In this document: one piece after another, positions 4,628-17,705 of the stretch
Layout of the letters: every line of letters starts with the position of its first letter
Position numbering within the stretch: the stretch's first letter is position 1
DNA from: Candidatus Hermodarchaeota archaeon
GTDB taxonomy: Archaea > Asgardarchaeota > Heimdallarchaeia > Hodarchaeales > Hodarchaeaceae
Direction: 5' to 3'
Assembly: GCA_048886185.1 (NCBI GenBank)
Contig: JBHLKY010000006.1
Coordinates: 120,001-152,000 of the forward strand
Length of the DNA stretch: 32,000 bases
Translations under genes and position numbers: made by a program
Notes under the pieces: model-generated
Seen by the model: the letters and a program-made list of their open reading frames with translations, nothing else
What the model was told of the DNA's origin: nothing
The model's database searches: none

Positions 4628-5035
4628 GTGGTTGGAACTGATTCATCAGCTAATTTTGTAGGAGATGCGTTTAAAAAATGCAGTCCTGAACTCGCTTTCC
4701 GATTTTTTGGAAGTAATGGCAAAGTGATAGCAACAATTTCGAATTTATCAGAATTGATCTCTACTTTACCCGAGATTCCAGCCACAATTGCCCAATTTCA
4801 TATCTTTCGTGAAACAACTCAAGATCTTTTTGAATCCAAAGAACTTGATGGGCCTGTTGTACGTTCAGATCTCGCTTTATGGATAAATTATGTCTTGGGT
4901 GACGCAGAACTCTCTCGTAGAGTATATGAAATCGGAAAAACTGAATCTAGTCATCCAGAATCTCTTAAAAAGCAAATTATTGAGTTATTAAAACAGCGAG
5001 AGCGGGAACTAATCAATTTAATACGTCCATCTTAA
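4628..5035 (+). CDS. Small DUF5752-like domain protein
   Basis: AFRF...IATISNLSELISTLPEIPATIAQFH...SDLALWINYVLGDAELSRRV matches the F.F...A.NL.EL...L..VP..S..FH....DF..WI...LGD..LA pattern. Confidence 0.6.
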   Translation: MVGTDSSANFVGDAFKKCSPELAFRFFGSNGKVIATISNLSELISTLPEIPATIAQFHIFRETTQDLFESKELDGPVVRSDLALWINYVLGDAELSRRVYEIGKTESSHPESLKKQIIELLKQRERELINLIRPS

Positions 5036-5242: not shown

Positions 5243-6487
5243 GTGGATATGTCTATTTTTCGGCGAATATTTCGTATAGATCCTCAACGTGACTTCTCAA
5301 AAGGACGAGAGGCATTTGATCAAGGAATGTATGCTTTGGCTTCTAAAATATTTCAGAAAACTTACAAACAATTTGACACGATCGATATGAAGCTCGTTTC
5401 TCTAGAGAATGCTGCAATTGCCGCAGAATATGCTGATATGTTTGAGAAATCATTAGAGCTGTATTACCAAACTGTTCTCCTAAAATTACAAACAGGCCAA
5501 CCTCCCAAAGAAGTCTTACACGATATTGATAAAGCTATAAATATGGCACGACAAAGCGAAAAATCCTCTTTTCCTATTAATAGACTTTTCTTTATGAAAT
5601 TCTTAATATTACTCTCTGAAAAAGATTTTGATCAGTTAGCATCCTATTATAGAAAATTATCATACGATTTTTCTGACAAATATCAGGATGCTATTGAGAA
5701 AAGTTGGACTTTAATACATTCTACTGAAACGTTTGCGAAAAAAGAATCACTTCCTCAGGTTGACCTTCCAGAAGAATTCTACAGCATTTTAGATGTGGCA
5801 GAGAAAGTTATGCAAAGATGTTCATTATGTGAAATCAGTTTAAGCATTATTGATCAACCCGAGAATATTCAAAAGGGTACTAGTTTTTCAATATCGGCAA
5901 CACTGACCTCACATTCAAATTTATCCATAAAAACGATTAATCTCAAAACAGGAACACGAGGTAGGATTTTAAATTCATCAACGCCTAATCTTCCATTAAA
6001 AATGAGCACAGGTGAAAATTATTCTATTATATTCACTTTAATTCCCAATTTACCTGGGGAGTGGTTGTTAGGTCCATTATCTTTAACTTATTCCATCCCA
6101 TCAGAATCAGGGAAATTTCCTGTAACATCGGAACCAATATCGCTGATGGTTAAAGATGCAGAGCCTGCCTTGAAATTAACAATGGACTCAAAAACTATAG
6201 AAGAAGATCACGAATATATAATAACAATTTCAGTTGAGAATGTTGGAAAAACGTCCCTTCAAAATATTAAAATAATTTCAGACATTCCTGAAGGCATTAA
6301 AATTCATGAAGGTACAAAAGAGAAATATATTAGTGCTTTAGGAGAAGGAGAGTCATTTCAATACGAAATACTTATTCGCTTCGAACTAGATAAAACTCAT
6401 TTTTCAGGGTATATAGTTAAAGCAAATGGATTCATTGAGGATAATCAAAGATTAGCCAAATGCTCTATCAAACTTGGAGGGAGGTAA
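5243..6487 (+). CDS. Cytosolic TPR/alpha-solenoid protein with two C-terminal Ig-like beta-sandwich domains
   Basis: The N-terminal ~190 aa are helical with TPR-like repeats (KGREAFDQGMYALASKIF; ENAAIAAEYADMFEKSLELY). They are followed by two Ig-like units (FSISATLTSHS...FTLIPNLPGEWLLGPLSLTY; ITISVENVGKTSLQNIKIISDIPEG). No signal peptide or TM segment. Confidence 0.7.
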   Translation: MDMSIFRRIFRIDPQRDFSKGREAFDQGMYALASKIFQKTYKQFDTIDMKLVSLENAAIAAEYADMFEKSLELYYQTVLLKLQTGQPPKEVLHDIDKAINMARQSEKSSFPINRLFFMKFLILLSEKDFDQLASYYRKLSYDFSDKYQDAIEKSWTLIHSTETFAKKESLPQVDLPEEFYSILDVAEKVMQRCSLCEISLSIIDQPENIQKGTSFSISATLTSHSNLSIKTINLKTGTRGRILNSSTPNLPLKMSTGENYSIIFTLIPNLPGEWLLGPLSLTYSIPSESGKFPVTSEPISLMVKDAEPALKLTMDSKTIEEDHEYIITISVENVGKTSLQNIKIISDIPEGIKIHEGTKEKYISALGEGESFQYEILIRFELDKTHFSGYIVKANGFIEDNQRLAKCSIKLGGR

Positions 6488-6614: not shown

Positions 6615-8792
6615 TCAGCCTGATCGAAGGCCAAGTCTAGCAATAAACGTGGAATAAAAGTCAAAGCAGTCAACTGATTCTTTTTCATCTAATGTGATCG
6701 AAGAATGAACGATTCTGTTTCTTAAATTCCGAAAATGGGCTATTTTTTTCTCACTGGGGAGATCAAAACCTCTCTTTCGGAGACTAACTACCTGAAATTG
6801 AAAATCAGGTTTTGAATAAATGGAATTTAGCACTAATTGCTGGAATCGAGTGGATAAAAGATTTTTGACTGCTGCATCAGCTTTTATTACAAATAGCTCA
6901 TAGTTGTTTTCTTTAAAAGCATGTTTAGCTTGATTCCACAGAACTCTGACATAATTTATATTTTTTAACGCTTGGTTGGGATCTAAACTCTGACTAATAA
7001 TCTGTTTATGAGATGACTCTGGATAGTTCAGTATGACATAAGAAATCCTATCAACAACCTGACTATAACTAATATATGAAGAGACATTAACAATTAAGAC
7101 AATAATTGTTAGTATCATTGTTGGGACAATTAATACAATAAACAATGCTGTTGAGTTAGGGACATCAAAAGGAAGCAAGTGGATGGAAAAAAGAGAAAAA
7201 CCAAGAAGATTCAGAACATCAAATATAATTAATCCAATTAGAATATATAAAAACCACTCATATTTTCTGTGAAGACGTTTGGAGATTACAAGTGTTTCCT
7301 TTTCGGACGATTCAATGAAATTTAATATCCCAAATGTTTTAAATGGAATGTTTGTTATTGGAATCAAAATGGATGTGTTTGGAACCTCTTTTATTTTGAA
7401 AATTCCCCGAAGACTGTTTCCTAAGATTTTATATATTTCTGGTAATGAAGTTGGAACAGACCACTGATTCATTCGATACCATTTCCCTTTTGAATCTAGA
7501 TATATTAGATATGATGGAATGAAACCTAATAATAGAATGGTTAGGATGATGGAGGGGAAACTCCATACGAATGGTTTGGGCAAACTGTATTCAAAATAAA
7601 TATAGAATTTTCCTACTGCATTCGATAGAGGAGAGACTTTTAAATAGTATTTACCTGCTTCATTCAGTTTTAAGGAGATGTTAAATTGTTTATCAACAAT
7701 CTGATTGTATTCTTCACCAATATAAGGCCGTTCCTGTTTCCCTCCGTCAAAAATTTCGACCGTGGCGTCTTCTAAAATCCTAGCTTCAGCAGAATCTGGC
7801 CCAAATACTCTAATGAAAACATTTGCTCTACTCGAGTTTACCATAAACCAAAAATAAAAGGGTTTCCTAGGAGAAAAGCCTTGATTAACTCGGATTGATA
7901 CAGTTTGGTTAAAAAATAGCTTTCCTGCTGTTTCAAAACTATATAGATCACGCTCAGCAATTAATGATATGTTATATTCACCTACAGATGAAACATCTTG
8001 TGGATTATGTCTGATCACAACGTAATAAGTATCAGTGCTATATGCATTCCAAGAATAGTTCCAATATCCATCTGAACCCGTCCTGAACTTCGTTTGAGGA
8101 TATACAGGGTTTTGGGGGTGTCCCTGTTGATAAATTGCTATTTCAGCATCATAAAGAACACTGGGTTTTGTTTCTTTTAAAATAATGGTTGCATTTTGAT
8201 TGTCGTGTAAGAATGTTTTCCAATACTGGGTCTCATGATCTACAGTAAAATTTCCAACTGAAATTGATTCATCTAGTCCTATTGCAGAAGTTTCATCAAA
8301 CCCAGTCCTTGGCATACTGACCAAAATGTTATAAGAGACATTTCCATTTCCAATATTATTTGTATAGTCTACCTGTAACTTCCAAGTACCTGTAACCGAT
8401 GCTTTCCATACTCCTAAAAACTTAGTAGGATGGATTTGTCTCTCAATCTCAAATTTAGTTCCTGAAGGATTGAATAGCGTCACATTATAATTTAAATCAG
8501 GAGCAATTGAAAAAAAGATAACTTTCCCTTTAGGGATGTTCTCAAGAAACCAATTATGAGACAAAGAAGTATTAGTAAAGAATGCTATTTTAGGAATTCC
8601 GTGGTTGAGAGTAGTCTGATTTAATGAATTACTTATCTTATTATAGAGATCTAATTCCATATCGGAAGTAGAGTTCGTGGGAAGTGGAGGAACCCTTATT
8701 GCTAAAAATATTAAAACCATTCCTACAACGAGGAGTATTTTAAGCTTTTTATTGATGCCATTCATGGGTTTAAATCCGTAGAAAGGGGTCAT
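6615..8792 (-). CDS. Multi-pass membrane protein with extracellular PPC-like repeats and a C-terminal HEPN domain
   Basis: N-terminal signal anchor (~aa 19-35). About three beta-sandwich repeats, each ending G.Y.L.V...G.Y.I, carry 12 N-x-S/T sequons. TMs at ~408-433, ~513-538 and ~549-571. The C-terminal helical domain has AKHAFKENNY and R691-NRIV-H696 (nt 6722-6705). Confidence 0.8.
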   Translation of the reverse strand: MTPFYGFKPMNGINKKLKILLVVGMVLIFLAIRVPPLPTNSTSDMELDLYNKISNSLNQTTLNHGIPKIAFFTNTSLSHNWFLENIPKGKVIFFSIAPDLNYNVTLFNPSGTKFEIERQIHPTKFLGVWKASVTGTWKLQVDYTNNIGNGNVSYNILVSMPRTGFDETSAIGLDESISVGNFTVDHETQYWKTFLHDNQNATIILKETKPSVLYDAEIAIYQQGHPQNPVYPQTKFRTGSDGYWNYSWNAYSTDTYYVVIRHNPQDVSSVGEYNISLIAERDLYSFETAGKLFFNQTVSIRVNQGFSPRKPFYFWFMVNSSRANVFIRVFGPDSAEARILEDATVEIFDGGKQERPYIGEEYNQIVDKQFNISLKLNEAGKYYLKVSPLSNAVGKFYIYFEYSLPKPFVWSFPSIILTILLLGFIPSYLIYLDSKGKWYRMNQWSVPTSLPEIYKILGNSLRGIFKIKEVPNTSILIPITNIPFKTFGILNFIESSEKETLVISKRLHRKYEWFLYILIGLIIFDVLNLLGFSLFSIHLLPFDVPNSTALFIVLIVPTMILTIIVLIVNVSSYISYSQVVDRISYVILNYPESSHKQIISQSLDPNQALKNINYVRVLWNQAKHAFKENNYELFVIKADAAVKNLLSTRFQQLVLNSIYSKPDFQFQVVSLRKRGFDLPSEKKIAHFRNLRNRIVHSSITLDEKESVDCFDFYSTFIARLGLRSG

Positions 8793-9063: not shown

Positions 9064-9705
9064 TTGAGTCGAAACGTTCGGATCTTCAAGAAAAGACTTC
9101 AAATTGCTCAAAAGAAATGGAATACAGTTCAAGGCCATTCATTGAGAACTGTAAACAGTATTTTAACCATCCTATCAAGATTAAATTTGATTCAACGTCC
9201 TGACGCTTTTTCTAAAACATTATTAACAAAATTTAATGACATTCCAGAAAGATTAGCCTATCATCTTGCAGAATTAATGAATAAAAGTATAATTGACCTT
9301 TTTTCTTATATTGATCAGTTTGCTGATATTGTTCGCGAAATGAGGAAAATAGAGGAACAATTTCGTTTGGATTTTTCTATAATGGCAAAGAAGCAAGTCG
9401 TTGGAGGAGCTGACGCTTGGCCTCATGATCTTGAGATAATAGATCAAGCTGAAAGAACTATTCAGGAAATTGTCGATATGTACGAGACTGAACTTACATT
9501 AAGAAAGCAATTAATAAAAGAAATTCAAGATTCCATTTCACTACAACCACCATTAATTACTGTTTACCTGATTCTCTGGACATCAGAAGTCTACATTGAA
9601 ATCAACCGAATTCATGAACTTATTGAGGAATTCACTCATGTTGAAAAAGTTTGTGAGAGGGTATTCCAGCAAGATTCATATAATTCAGTCACGAGATCAC
9701 GATAG
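9064..9705 (+). CDS. Helical protein resembling eukaryotic CINP / C1orf109 (AIRIM)
   Basis: Motifs KKW19NT, F57NDIPERL, AWP, DM139YETELTLRKQLIKEI and VYLILW172TSEVYIE align by eye with recalled CINP/C1orf109 motifs. TTG start. Confidence 0.65.
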   Translation: MSRNVRIFKKRLQIAQKKWNTVQGHSLRTVNSILTILSRLNLIQRPDAFSKTLLTKFNDIPERLAYHLAELMNKSIIDLFSYIDQFADIVREMRKIEEQFRLDFSIMAKKQVVGGADAWPHDLEIIDQAERTIQEIVDMYETELTLRKQLIKEIQDSISLQPPLITVYLILWTSEVYIEINRIHELIEEFTHVEKVCERVFQQDSYNSVTRSR

Positions 9706-14648: not shown

Positions 14649-15806
14649 CTATTTCTTCGAGGAAAGAGATTTAGCTAACTCTTCATTACCTTTAAATACA
14701 TAACTTTTATCAATTGTCCTTTCGAGTTCTTTTAATAATTTTTTCTCTGATTTAGATAATTTAGGAGGGAATTTTACTGTTAAACCAATGTGCATATCGC
14801 CTTTTTGATAACTGTTTGGATAGGGAGCCCCTTTATTGTGCAGAGTAATAATCTTTCCCGACTCAGTTCCAGGTTTAATGGTAATTGTTTCCGTTCCATT
14901 GATGGTAGGAACTTCTACCTTTGTACCCAGAATGGCGTCGATAAAGCTAATCGGATATTCAAGAAGGATATCGGAGCCATTTCTACGGAAAAAAGGGTGA
15001 GGATCTACTAAAATAACCAGATAAAGATTGCCAGGTGGTCCGCCCAATTCGCCTGGTCGTCCCTCACCCTGCACTACCACTCGCATCCCAGTGTCAACCC
15101 CTGCAGGAATTTCAGCATTAACTGTCCTAAACTGTTTTACTTTTCCTATGCCTTTGCAGGTATTACATTCGGCACCTTTGGGTAAGCTATTGCCTTCCCC
15201 TCGACATTGTGGACAAGTGGTAATATTAACTATCTGTCCAAATGCTGACCGTTGAACTCGTCTAATCTCTCCTGTTCCTTGGCATGTATCGCAGGTTTTT
15301 AACGATTTTCCTTCTTTAACTCGTGTACCATGACAAGTTGGGCATTGCGCCCAATTCGGAACTTTTATTTTTTTTTCCAAACCTTTCATGGCATCTTCAA
15401 ATGATATTTCAAGGTTCAGCCGCACATCCTGTCCTCTTCGTGCGCTTGGACGAGAAGTTCTTGCACGAGAACCACCTCCAAATGCACTAAAGAGATCATC
15501 AAAAATCCCAAATCCACTGAAGAGATCCTCGAACCCAATTCCCGAAAAATCCCGGAATTGAGCTCCTGATAATCCACTATGGCCGAATCGGTCATAAGTA
15601 GCTCGTTTATCCGTGTCTGAGAGAACTTCAAATGCTTCAGCTACTTCCTTGAACTTTTCCTCTGCATTTGGATCATCTGGCTTCATATCTGGATGATATT
15701 TTCTCGCAAGATCTCTGAATGCTTTTTTTATTGTTTTAATATCAGCATCTCTTGGTACCCCCAAGACCTCATAGTAGTCTCTTTTGTTCTCACTCAGCGT
15801 GTTCAC
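14649..15806 (-). CDS. dnaJ: Chaperone DnaJ (Hsp40)
   Basis: J domain with HPD, G/F-rich region, four CxxCxGx(G) zinc motifs and a C-terminal substrate-binding domain. Confidence 0.97.
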
Positions 15807-15839
15807 CTAGTTATCTTGCTCGATATTGGAAATCCGTAG

Positions 15840-17705
15840 TTACTCATCATCCACTATTTCATAATCCACATCAACAACTTCAGATTCGTCTGCTCCACTA
15901 GAAGTACCCTTAAATCCAGATGTACCCGCCTGCTGAGCTTGAGCTTGGGCTTGTTGCGCAGCCTGTTGTGAGTAAAGCTTTTGAGTTAATTCATGAGTGA
16001 TTTTCTCTAGTTCTTCACTTTTTTTCTTAATATCTTCGATTATTCCACTTTTAAGTGCATCTTTTAGGTTTTTTATATTTGTCTCAGCCCTAGAACGTGT
16101 ACCAGCATCTACTTGATCACCAAGATCTTTGAGTAACTTCTCTGATTGATATACTAGGGAATCGGCTTTGTTGAGAGCTTCTGCTTCTTCAAGGCGCTTG
16201 GAGTCCTCTACTTCATATTTAGCTGCTTCATCTACCATACGTTGAAAGTCTTTTTCAGAGAGTCCGCTATCACTTTTGATGGTAATTTTTTGTTCATTTC
16301 CAGTTCCTAAGTCTTTGGCAGTAACATTTACAATTCCATTTGCATCAATATCAAAAGTTACTTCAATTTGAGGAATTCCACGAGGAGCTGGCGGGATTCC
16401 AACTAATTGGAATCTCCCAAGTGTTATATTATTAGCTGCCATTTTACGTTCCCCCTGTAATACATGAATTTCAACTGAAGGTTGATTATCTGCAGCTGTT
16501 GAGAAAATTTGACTTTTCTTTGTAGGAATCGTTGTATTTCTTTCTATAAGCTTAGTGAAAACTTCTCCTAAAGTCTCTATTCCTAATGATAAGGGAGTAA
16601 CATCAAGGAGTAAAACATCTTTCACCTCACCTGTAAGAATAGCTGCTTGAATAGCTGCTCCTAAGGCGACACATTCATCAGGATTAATTTCTTTGGTCAA
16701 TTCCTTATTAAAAAAGCTTTTTAACGCTGATTGAACAGCAGGAACTCTGGTTGAACCACCTACTAATAAAATTTTATCAATATCTGAAGGTTTTAATTTT
16801 GCATCAGCCATGGCCTGTCGAGTAGGACCCATTGCGGCTTCAATTAAATCAGCTATCATTATTTCAAATTGGGAACGCGAAAGCGTAAGATTAAGATGTT
16901 TTGGTCCAGTGTTATCGGCATAAATATAAGGTAAGTTAATATTGGCTGATGTCTTTTGAGATAATTCGATTTTTGCCTGTTCTGCGGCATCTTTTAATCG
17001 TTGCATTGCCATAGGATCTTTAGAAAGATCTAATCCCGATTCTTTCTTGAATTCTTCAATTATCCAATCCATTATTCTTTGGTCGAAATCATCTCCACCT
17101 AGCCGATTATTCCCAGATGTGGCTTTAACTTCAAAAACTCCTTCCGATAGCTCTAATATTGAAACATCAAAAGTACCTCCTCCTAAATCAAACACTAGTA
17201 CAGTCTGTTCTTCCTCTTTATCAAGACCATAAGCCAAAGAAGCACTTGTTGGTTCATTAATTATACGAAGAACCTCTAATCCTGCAATTTGTCCTGCGTC
17301 TTTGGTTGCTTGTCGTTGAGAATCAGAGAAATAGGCTGGAACTGTTATAACTGCTTGTTTTATTGACTCACCCAAATATGCTTCTGCATCACGCTTGAGC
17401 TTTTGGAGGATCATGGCACTAATCTCTGGTGGTTTATATATCTTGCCATCTATCGTGACTTTATAGTTAGTACCCATTTCTCTCTTAATAGATCTGATTG
17501 TTCGCTCGGGATTTGAGACAGCCTGTCTTCTAGCTAAAATCCCGACTATTCTTTCCCCTTCTTTAGTAATAGTAACTACAGAGGGGGTAATTCTTTGTCC
17601 TTCAGCGTTAGGAATAATTACTGCTTTTCCACCTTCCATGGTAGCAATACCTGAAAAGGTTGTTCCTAAATCTATACCAATTGGTCTAGGCATCTTATTT
17701 TTCAC
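15840..17705 (-). CDS. dnaK: Chaperone DnaK (Hsp70)
   Basis: [37 protein letters not shown]. Lacks the N-terminal insertion of diderm DnaK (monoderm/archaeal type). Confidence 0.98.

Follow-up and report, generated by a model that had tools for sequence, protein, structure and literature searches.

The window analyzed here is a 32,000-nucleotide (nt) stretch of contig JBHLKY010000006.1 (positions 120,001 to 152,000 of the forward strand) from a Candidatus Hermodarchaeota archaeon. Positions 6615..8792 of the window carry, on the minus strand, a 725-codon open reading frame (ORF) whose translation is free of internal stops (725 amino acids, aa, plus stop) and which is real and uninterrupted, as stated in a preliminary description of this DNA. 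The predicted product combines an N-terminal signal anchor, an ectodomain of three beta-sandwiches, three further transmembrane (TM) helices, and a C-terminal HEPN domain. From its sequence, it appears to represent an undescribed, Hodarchaeales-specific family of polytopic membrane glycoproteins, with glycosylation predicted, here called TM-HEPN. The true start of the gene is probably M10 (codon 8763-8765) and not the first ATG at 8792, because the 716-aa form found in the database and all homologs begin about 9-14 residues later. Residue numbering nevertheless follows the 725-aa frame throughout, and feature coordinates are window positions on the minus strand unless marked otherwise. A TATA-like sequence, TTTATATT, lies ~55-60 nt upstream of the first ATG. 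The region has a GC content of 33% and ordinary genes around it. No RNA dataset containing this stretch is listed, only sediment DNA runs matching it, from which the window itself may derive.

The assignment of the helical C-terminal domain (aa 605-725; 6618..6980) to the HEPN fold is well supported by structural modeling taken together with sequence motifs. Residues 575-725, folded alone by AlphaFold2 (AF2) with a 27-sequence alignment, gave a mean predicted local distance difference test score (pLDDT) of 84 and a predicted template modeling score (pTM) of 0.73. The HEPN superfamily is characterized by a bundle of four helices in which an insert separates helix 2 from helix 3 (Anantharaman, Makarova, Burroughs, Koonin, and Aravind 2013; PMC3710099). 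The AF2 model has this arrangement, with helices at 605-627, 631-653, 681-697, and 703-719 and an insert (654-680) that itself contains a helix at 664-673. In a VIA structural search, HEPN proteins fill nearly all the top ranks, in line with the fold first suggested for this domain, at Z scores of 8.5-11.3. According to the caveat of the search tool, Z scores below ~13 can arise by chance for helical bundles, so the fold match alone is suggestive and not decisive. The best match is AF0298 (2hsb; Z 11.3, root-mean-square deviation [rmsd] 3.0 A, 118 residues aligned), and the others include the sacsin HEPN domain (Z 10.3), TT1696 (Z 9.9), 4nqf, the AbiA HEPN domain, Csm6, HI0074, HepT toxins, and AbiV. 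Matches in the ESM Atlas are to HEPN_SAV_6107, DUF4145, and HEPN clusters. When the 27 members were scanned one by one against Pfam, HEPN_RiboL-PSP was found in 25 and DUF4145 in 14 (best E 6e-5, in a single homolog), all below the gathering score, and no competing family recurred. Searching the PDB with a sequence profile of the HEPN alignment yielded no significant match; the top one (E 0.034) was an unrelated RRM protein. By fold plus motifs, the domain would thus be a new family within the superfamily.

Judged by its sequence, the domain keeps every feature of catalytically active HEPN ribonucleases (RNases), a statement that we consider well supported. The published active-site signature is Rx4-6H at the end of helix 3, with a polar N, D, or H following the arginine, and helix 2 carries an acidic residue, typically within E-x3-[KR] (Anantharaman et al. 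2013). The only RxxxxH of the protein, R691-N-R-I-V-H696 (6705..6722), is the one pointed out previously; this Rx4H motif lies at the end of helix 3. Together with the bundle and its insert, N692 after the arginine, and D639-x3-K643, it completes the four published features. The R, N, and H of the motif are invariant in the 27 close homologs and in 17 full-length members of the wider family, all 17 of which keep R-N-x-[IV]-V-H, also where the ectodomains are only about 20% identical. This is the outcome that the proposed conservation check of RxxxxH had called for. In helix 2, alignment and the published motif definition identify D639-A-A-V-K643 (6864..6878) as the equivalent of E-x3-[KR], and D639-x3-[KR] is invariant in all TM members, aspartate replacing the typical glutamate. 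The preliminary description had cautioned that AVK stands where AVE is usual. Its reading of residues 641-643 was correct, but the concern is largely resolved by the acidic D639 one helical turn earlier. The expectation of AVE is itself explained by more distant relatives, which read N-A-A-[VIL]-E (N-x3-E) at the position of D639-K643.

Hydropathy and AF2 agree on four membrane segments, the signal anchor and three further helices anticipated from the sequence, at residues ~17-33, 412-434, 514-537, and 549-571. TM1 (17-33; 8694..8744; AF2 helix 12-32), a signal anchor or signal peptide, follows K15 and K16, with K18 also nearby. TM2 (7491..7559) is associated with W410 and P426, both nearly invariant across the wide family. 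It is followed by a conserved, net positive juxtamembrane loop or domain, predicted to be cytoplasmic (435-513; 7254..7490), which has 77% mean column identity and a pLDDT <50, and whose pattern W...F..L..N.R...EVP.E.IL is recognizable in distant members. TM3 (7182..7253) and TM4 (7080..7148) are separated by a short outer loop (538-548). Beyond TM4 lies a segment (572-604; 6981..7079) in which a helical stalk continuing the TM helix (AF2 helix 547-592) passes into a low-confidence linker (pLDDT <50 at 586-601), with a sequence that is variable among homologs. For residues 433-725, the Protein Atlas returned no feature match, and its structure matches were small bacterial proteins of unknown function.

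The predicted topology, with the N-terminus inside, the ectodomain outside, and both the conserved loop and the C-terminus inside, fits the positive-inside rule and the archaeal N-glycosylation bias. Among the 27 close homologs, the net charge is −16.8 for the ectodomain, −0.4 for loop 538-548, +4.8 for loop 433-513, and +7.6 for the C-terminal domain. In the same set, sequons per 100 aa, observed versus shuffled, number 3.25 versus 1.20 in the ectodomain, 5.05 versus 0.94 in the short loop 538-548, 1.33 versus 0.89 in loop 433-513, and 0.05 versus 1.10 in the C-terminal domain. Loop 538-548 has no K or R and carries a nearly invariant sequon at N546. A cytoplasmic location of the C-terminal domain, as originally claimed, is consistent with these biases. 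Crude hydropathy counts three or five segments after the ectodomain in 12 of the 17 wide-family members, the exceptions being a threshold effect. One member, P0038 (774 aa), has extra TM segments inserted between TM2 and the conserved loop; as the insertion is a pair of helices, the parity of the topology is kept.

The full-length AF2 model bears out the three beta-sandwiches proposed for the ectodomain, with a pLDDT of about 90, and exactly 12 of the 15 NxS/T sequons of the protein fall within residues 35-410, the number counted before. Sandwich 1 (aa about 60-160; 8313..8615) matches PliG and the SIDT ectodomain at Z about 9-10 and has a weak Pfam match to LtfC. Sandwich 2 (about 176-282; 7947..8267) resembles GOLD domains, with p24beta1 (Z 11.2, rmsd 2.4 A, 92 residues) and SPF (Z 11.0) as matches, and sandwiches 1 and 2 together (about 57-304) align with the extracellular region of SIDT1/2 (Z about 10). 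The clearest likeness is that of sandwich 3 (about 283-405; 7578..7946), which superposes on the pre-peptidase C-terminal (PPC) and collagenase collagen-binding domain (CBD) fold: ColH CBD (3jqw) gives Z 14.2, rmsd 1.9 A, and 20% identity over 108 aligned residues, ColG CBD gives Z 13-14, and the CBD set as a whole lies at rmsd 1.9-2.0 A and 20-22% identity. The pre-peptidase C-terminal domain of Bacillus anthracis (5sv5) follows at Z 12.4, and the best Foldseek match is 5iku (E 8.7e-11). The term PPC-like therefore holds for sandwich 3 at the level of fold, but not as a significant Pfam match. PF04151 (PPC) was absent from the Pfam scans with the cut-off at E = 10, which listed only weak LtfC and P_proprotein matches; as the HMMER filters drop most weak matches, this null result means only that there is no significant match. 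Likewise, the sandwiches can be called repeats in sharing the same fold, but BLASTP found no significant similarity among the three. Sequence change is faster in the ectodomain than in the HEPN domain (60% vs. 81% column identity in the 27 close homologs), and the ectodomain is barely alignable in distant full-length members.

The TM-HEPN family is restricted to Hodarchaeales, where it is a near-universal, single-copy core gene. In a whole-genome search, 19 of the 20 species sampled from the genus of the window have the domain, as do both genomes from another family in this order, there in frames of about 795 aa; none of the other sampled families of the class has it, and one further Asgard family holds only weak relatives in short frames. 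The full gene occurs once per genome. A word-indexed search recovered 32 homologous proteins, all of about 700-723 aa and 48-66% identical, whose named sources are all Asgard metagenome-assembled genomes (Hodarchaeales, Hodarchaeota, Heimdallarchaeota, or loosely labeled Thor- or Promethearchaeota). When 1.84 billion proteins were searched exhaustively with a profile of the HEPN domain, no more than 31 representatives emerged. About 18 are full-length (684-774 aa) with HEPN at the extreme C-terminus, the rest being fragments or other architectures, and the four relatives that were traced are labeled Hodarchaeales, Heimdallarchaeota, or B3_Heim. Distant full-length members are about 17-23% identical to the window protein in the ectodomain and TM part. 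They keep the G-F-D-x-P loop, with isolated F-to-Y/L and G-to-A changes, and the R-L-G-L-R tail, with its L positions occasionally M or I.

The nearest out-group relatives carry the domain in other settings: an LRR-HEPN protein with an intact motif (P0061), a Zn-ribbon, multi-TM, and HEPN protein that has lost the H (P0063), a 1-TM-HEPN protein with an intact motif (P0060), and a Zn-ribbon-HEPN protein that has also lost the H (P0058). This HEPN clade thus appears to have been repeatedly combined with sensor-like or membrane modules. In the genome of the window, the TM-HEPN C-terminus recurs on contig C40 (14872-14973, minus strand) as a near-identical 34-aa segment that starts at the motif's IVH and runs through the last residue. 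This segment sits in noncoding DNA, with a small multi-TM ORF upstream of it, and was probably left behind by a duplicated copy. In another genome of the genus (G250), the final part of the HEPN domain gives a second, short match. The genome of the window, which is 96% complete, gave no match to PF11977 (NYN RNase).

The TM-HEPN gene is monocistronic; it is flanked by a convergent gene of 414 aa and a divergent, CA109-like one. The latter (9064-9705, plus strand; 213 aa) matches the Pfam family CA109-like (C1orf109-like ribosome biogenesis protein) above the cut-off (E 6.4e-12), and the pairing is kept in loci L003 and L010 of the closer clade but not in the wider family. The 414-aa neighbor (5243-6487, plus strand) has a weak, sub-threshold match to Nup120 HEAT repeats (E 4e-6, 27.2 bits vs. 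29), and a 135-aa gene (4628-5035, plus strand) matches DUF5752; both are conserved beside the TM-HEPN gene in L003 and L010. The same local order is found in a closed 4.9-Mb genome and in one more divergent member. It does not recur at four wider-family loci, where the neighbors are ATP-grasp, CofG/H, Arf-like GTPase, acyl-CoA carboxylase, and ribosomal genes. A dnaJ-dnaK pair (14649-17705, minus strand) lies 5-7 kb from the TM-HEPN gene and is also near it in the closed relative and in the distant member P0050, where the genes in between differ; it is absent from three other loci. This proximity likely reflects residual synteny and gives no more than a hint of a link to protein-folding stress. 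Across the wide family, no gene is consistently retained as a partner. Neither the window nor six related loci have a nucleotidyltransferase (MNT) or antitoxin-like gene among the neighbors, so that the adjacent MNT gene of HEPN-MNT toxin-antitoxin pairs is missing. Instead, the neighbors are of housekeeping type (DnaK/DnaJ, ArcS-like, ribosomal genes). PADLOC gave no match for the TM-HEPN protein or five neighbors, and there is no defense island.

Self-association of the HEPN domain was addressed by homodimer prediction. The median score was 0.50 against 0.00 for the best control. Of 30 proteins with structures solved as pairs, 20 reach this mark, as does one of 23 solved as single chains; the pass may reflect mere likeness, HEPN dimers being well represented among solved structures. 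The partner pLDDT does not fall below 73, and contact agreement between the runs is 0% or more. To the confident contacts, helix 1 contributes P605, A608, L609, and I612 near its start and helix 2 contributes Q652-L653 at its end; K673-D677 and A718-R723 complete the set. The invariant tail A718-R-L-G-L-R723 (6621..6638) and the K673-R-G-F-D677 loop make up the predicted surface, and we infer that self-association through these two elements, which are among the most conserved noncatalytic ones, is supported by the models.

The TM-HEPN protein may couple the cell surface to RNA cleavage. In the best explanation, to which we give about an even chance, it is an HEPN RNase at the inner face of the membrane whose activity is set by ectodomain-governed clustering. 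The HEPN domain would be a metal-independent endoribonuclease whose activity would vary with the oligomerization or clustering of the protein, and this in turn with what the ectodomain binds or responds to, for instance a surface polymer, a partner cell, or an envelope state. Since the linker (586-604) varies in sequence and is poorly ordered in the AF2 model, clustering or proximity is a more plausible mode of control than a rigid piston. The 80-aa cytoplasmic loop, which is strongly conserved, may serve as a regulatory element. The behavior of a single-copy core gene points to a regulatory or stress-related role rather than mobile defense. A more specific version, in which an extracellular ligand or surface contact bound by the PPC-like ectodomain alters clustering and thereby switches on HEPN cleavage, would make the protein a true single-chain receptor-RNase, signaling directly from surface to RNA in an archaeon as an independent, kinase-less analogue of Ire1/RNase L; we regard this version as possible but tentative. 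In favor of the surface-controlled HEPN RNase count the HEPN fold with its complete active-site signature, the charge and sequon biases, the slower change of the HEPN domain relative to the ectodomain, the distribution, the predicted self-association, and the precedent of out-group relatives in which HEPN is fused to sensor-like modules. Several results speak against it. Foldseek ranks the same HEPN entries first, yet all at E >0.1, and no curated HEPN profile exceeds its gathering score, the best being HEPN_RiboL-PSP with 17.6 bits versus 28.4. In the close family, the whole HEPN domain is near-invariant, which makes conservation of the motif uninformative there. One of the three homodimer runs scored 0.01. 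As judged from the up-down topology, the predicted contacts gather where the bundle has its N- and C-termini, opposite R691/H696, so that the canonical composite HEPN site is not supported; an AlphaFold dimer had been proposed as a check for precisely such a site. Finally, a profile lacking the HEPN domain found only the TM-HEPN family and no sensor module with another output, in a search of low sensitivity that did not recover distant family members either.

This last result, together with the flexible and variable TM4-HEPN linker, which argues against tight coupling, and the position of a single-copy core gene among housekeeping genes, would also suit a constitutive membrane-localized RNase, acting for instance in the turnover or processing of membrane-associated transcripts, with an ectodomain that does not gate it and serves in anchoring or in the envelope. 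We consider this unlikely: without regulation, HEPN RNases are as a rule toxic, and most come with an antitoxin or regulator, whereas no conserved partner gene exists here, and regulation is suggested both by the strong conservation of the 80-aa loop and by that of the self-association surface. The domain might otherwise be a noncatalytic docking module that binds RNA, nucleotide, or protein, as in MtlR or as reported for sacsin HEPN, within an adhesin or surface glycoprotein. Many HEPN domains are indeed noncatalytic (Anantharaman et al. 2013), HEPN-T and sacsin-type domains are among the closest structural matches, the ectodomain resembles the binding modules CBD/PPC and GOLD, and the conserved surfaces (GFD loop, RLGLR tail) lie away from the motif. 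What makes this doubtful is that R, N, H, and D-x3-K are kept in every full-length member, across a divergence that has altered most other positions. Defense, which the preliminary description had suggested among other roles, would take the form of an antiviral abortive-infection sensor in which virus contact leads to RNA degradation by HEPN and to dormancy or death. HEPN RNases are common defense effectors (Anantharaman et al. 2013), the ectodomain is surface-exposed and fast-evolving, and an LRR-HEPN relative exists. However, the gene is present order-wide in single copy, near-universal and syntenic instead of patchy, among housekeeping neighbors, and neither the protein nor its neighbors have a PADLOC match. 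We therefore reject defense as the main explanation and hold it to be very improbable.

Hodarchaeales are among the closest archaeal relatives of eukaryotes, in which signaling from a surface to RNA cleavage is established (Ire1, RNase L). In prokaryotes, such signaling has only been predicted, in 2013 from bacterial TM-HEPN architectures, and we found no experimental test of it in the literature. With a single gene, no required partner, an intact motif, a well-modeled ectodomain, and a near-universal presence in one Asgard order, TM-HEPN offers a clean test system. If the protein is active and gated, it would be a new type of signal-transduction output for archaea and would inform how membrane-coupled control of RNA arises without kinases. 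If inactive, it would be a surface glycoprotein that makes unusual use of an HEPN fold for its cytoplasmic module.

The preliminary description knew of no described system with this architecture. This holds in that none of the groups described in 2013 fits, but the general design had been predicted: bacterial membrane-bound HEPN proteins were proposed as "stimulus-dependent RNases" and explicitly likened to Ire1 and C6orf70 (Anantharaman et al. 2013). The three TM-HEPN groups of that study are DUF4145 with WP-TM, an Abi2/Swt1-type group with one TM, and HEPN-2TM-Zn-ribbon. The family reported here shares with them a cytoplasmic motif-bearing HEPN domain, TM helices, and the proposed logic from surface stimulus to RNA, and DUF4145 is among its nearest Pfam families. 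By their description, the bacterial groups differ from it in that it is archaeal, has a three-domain, predictedly glycosylated ectodomain, four TMs, and a conserved 80-aa loop, and is a single-copy core gene. As for the DUF4145/WP-TM group, also compared by description only, W410 and P426 stand near TM2 but 16 residues apart. No paper was found that connects HEPN domains to Hodarchaeales or that combines them with both an extracellular domain and TM helices, and Vassallo (2022) mentions HEPN only generically.

With Ire1 and RNase L, the TM-HEPN protein has in common the outline of a sensor domain and an RNase output of the HEPN superfamily. In Ire1, the sensor lies across the membrane from the RNase, which is activated by oligomerization. 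Unlike these proteins, TM-HEPN has no kinase or pseudokinase according to Pfam, and its HEPN helices run in standard order, not in the circular permutation that characterizes KEN domains after a kinase or pseudokinase; KEN structures are not among the listed VIA and Foldseek matches of the C-terminal domain. The resemblance is best regarded as an analogy rather than as demonstrated ancestry. C6orf70/ERMARD (DUF4209), a predicted HEPN protein of the endoplasmic reticulum membrane, likewise combines a membrane anchor with a predicted active HEPN domain but is eukaryotic and has a single TM, and DUF4209 is absent from the TM-HEPN Pfam scans, which list matches up to E = 1 to 10. A descent of KEN or ERMARD from the TM-HEPN family finds no supporting evidence in the Pfam, structural, or profile searches, nor do they tie the family by ancestry to other eukaryotic HEPN proteins. 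On the extracellular side, sandwich 3 shares its fold with clostridial collagenase CBD/PPC domains; in contrast to the collagenases, no protease is attached, and the CBD-like domain is one of three in a membrane-anchored ectodomain. No describing paper having been found, what is new relative to all these systems is an order-wide, single-copy archaeal family that joins a triple-sandwich, predictedly glycosylated ectodomain and four TMs to an HEPN domain outside the curated families.

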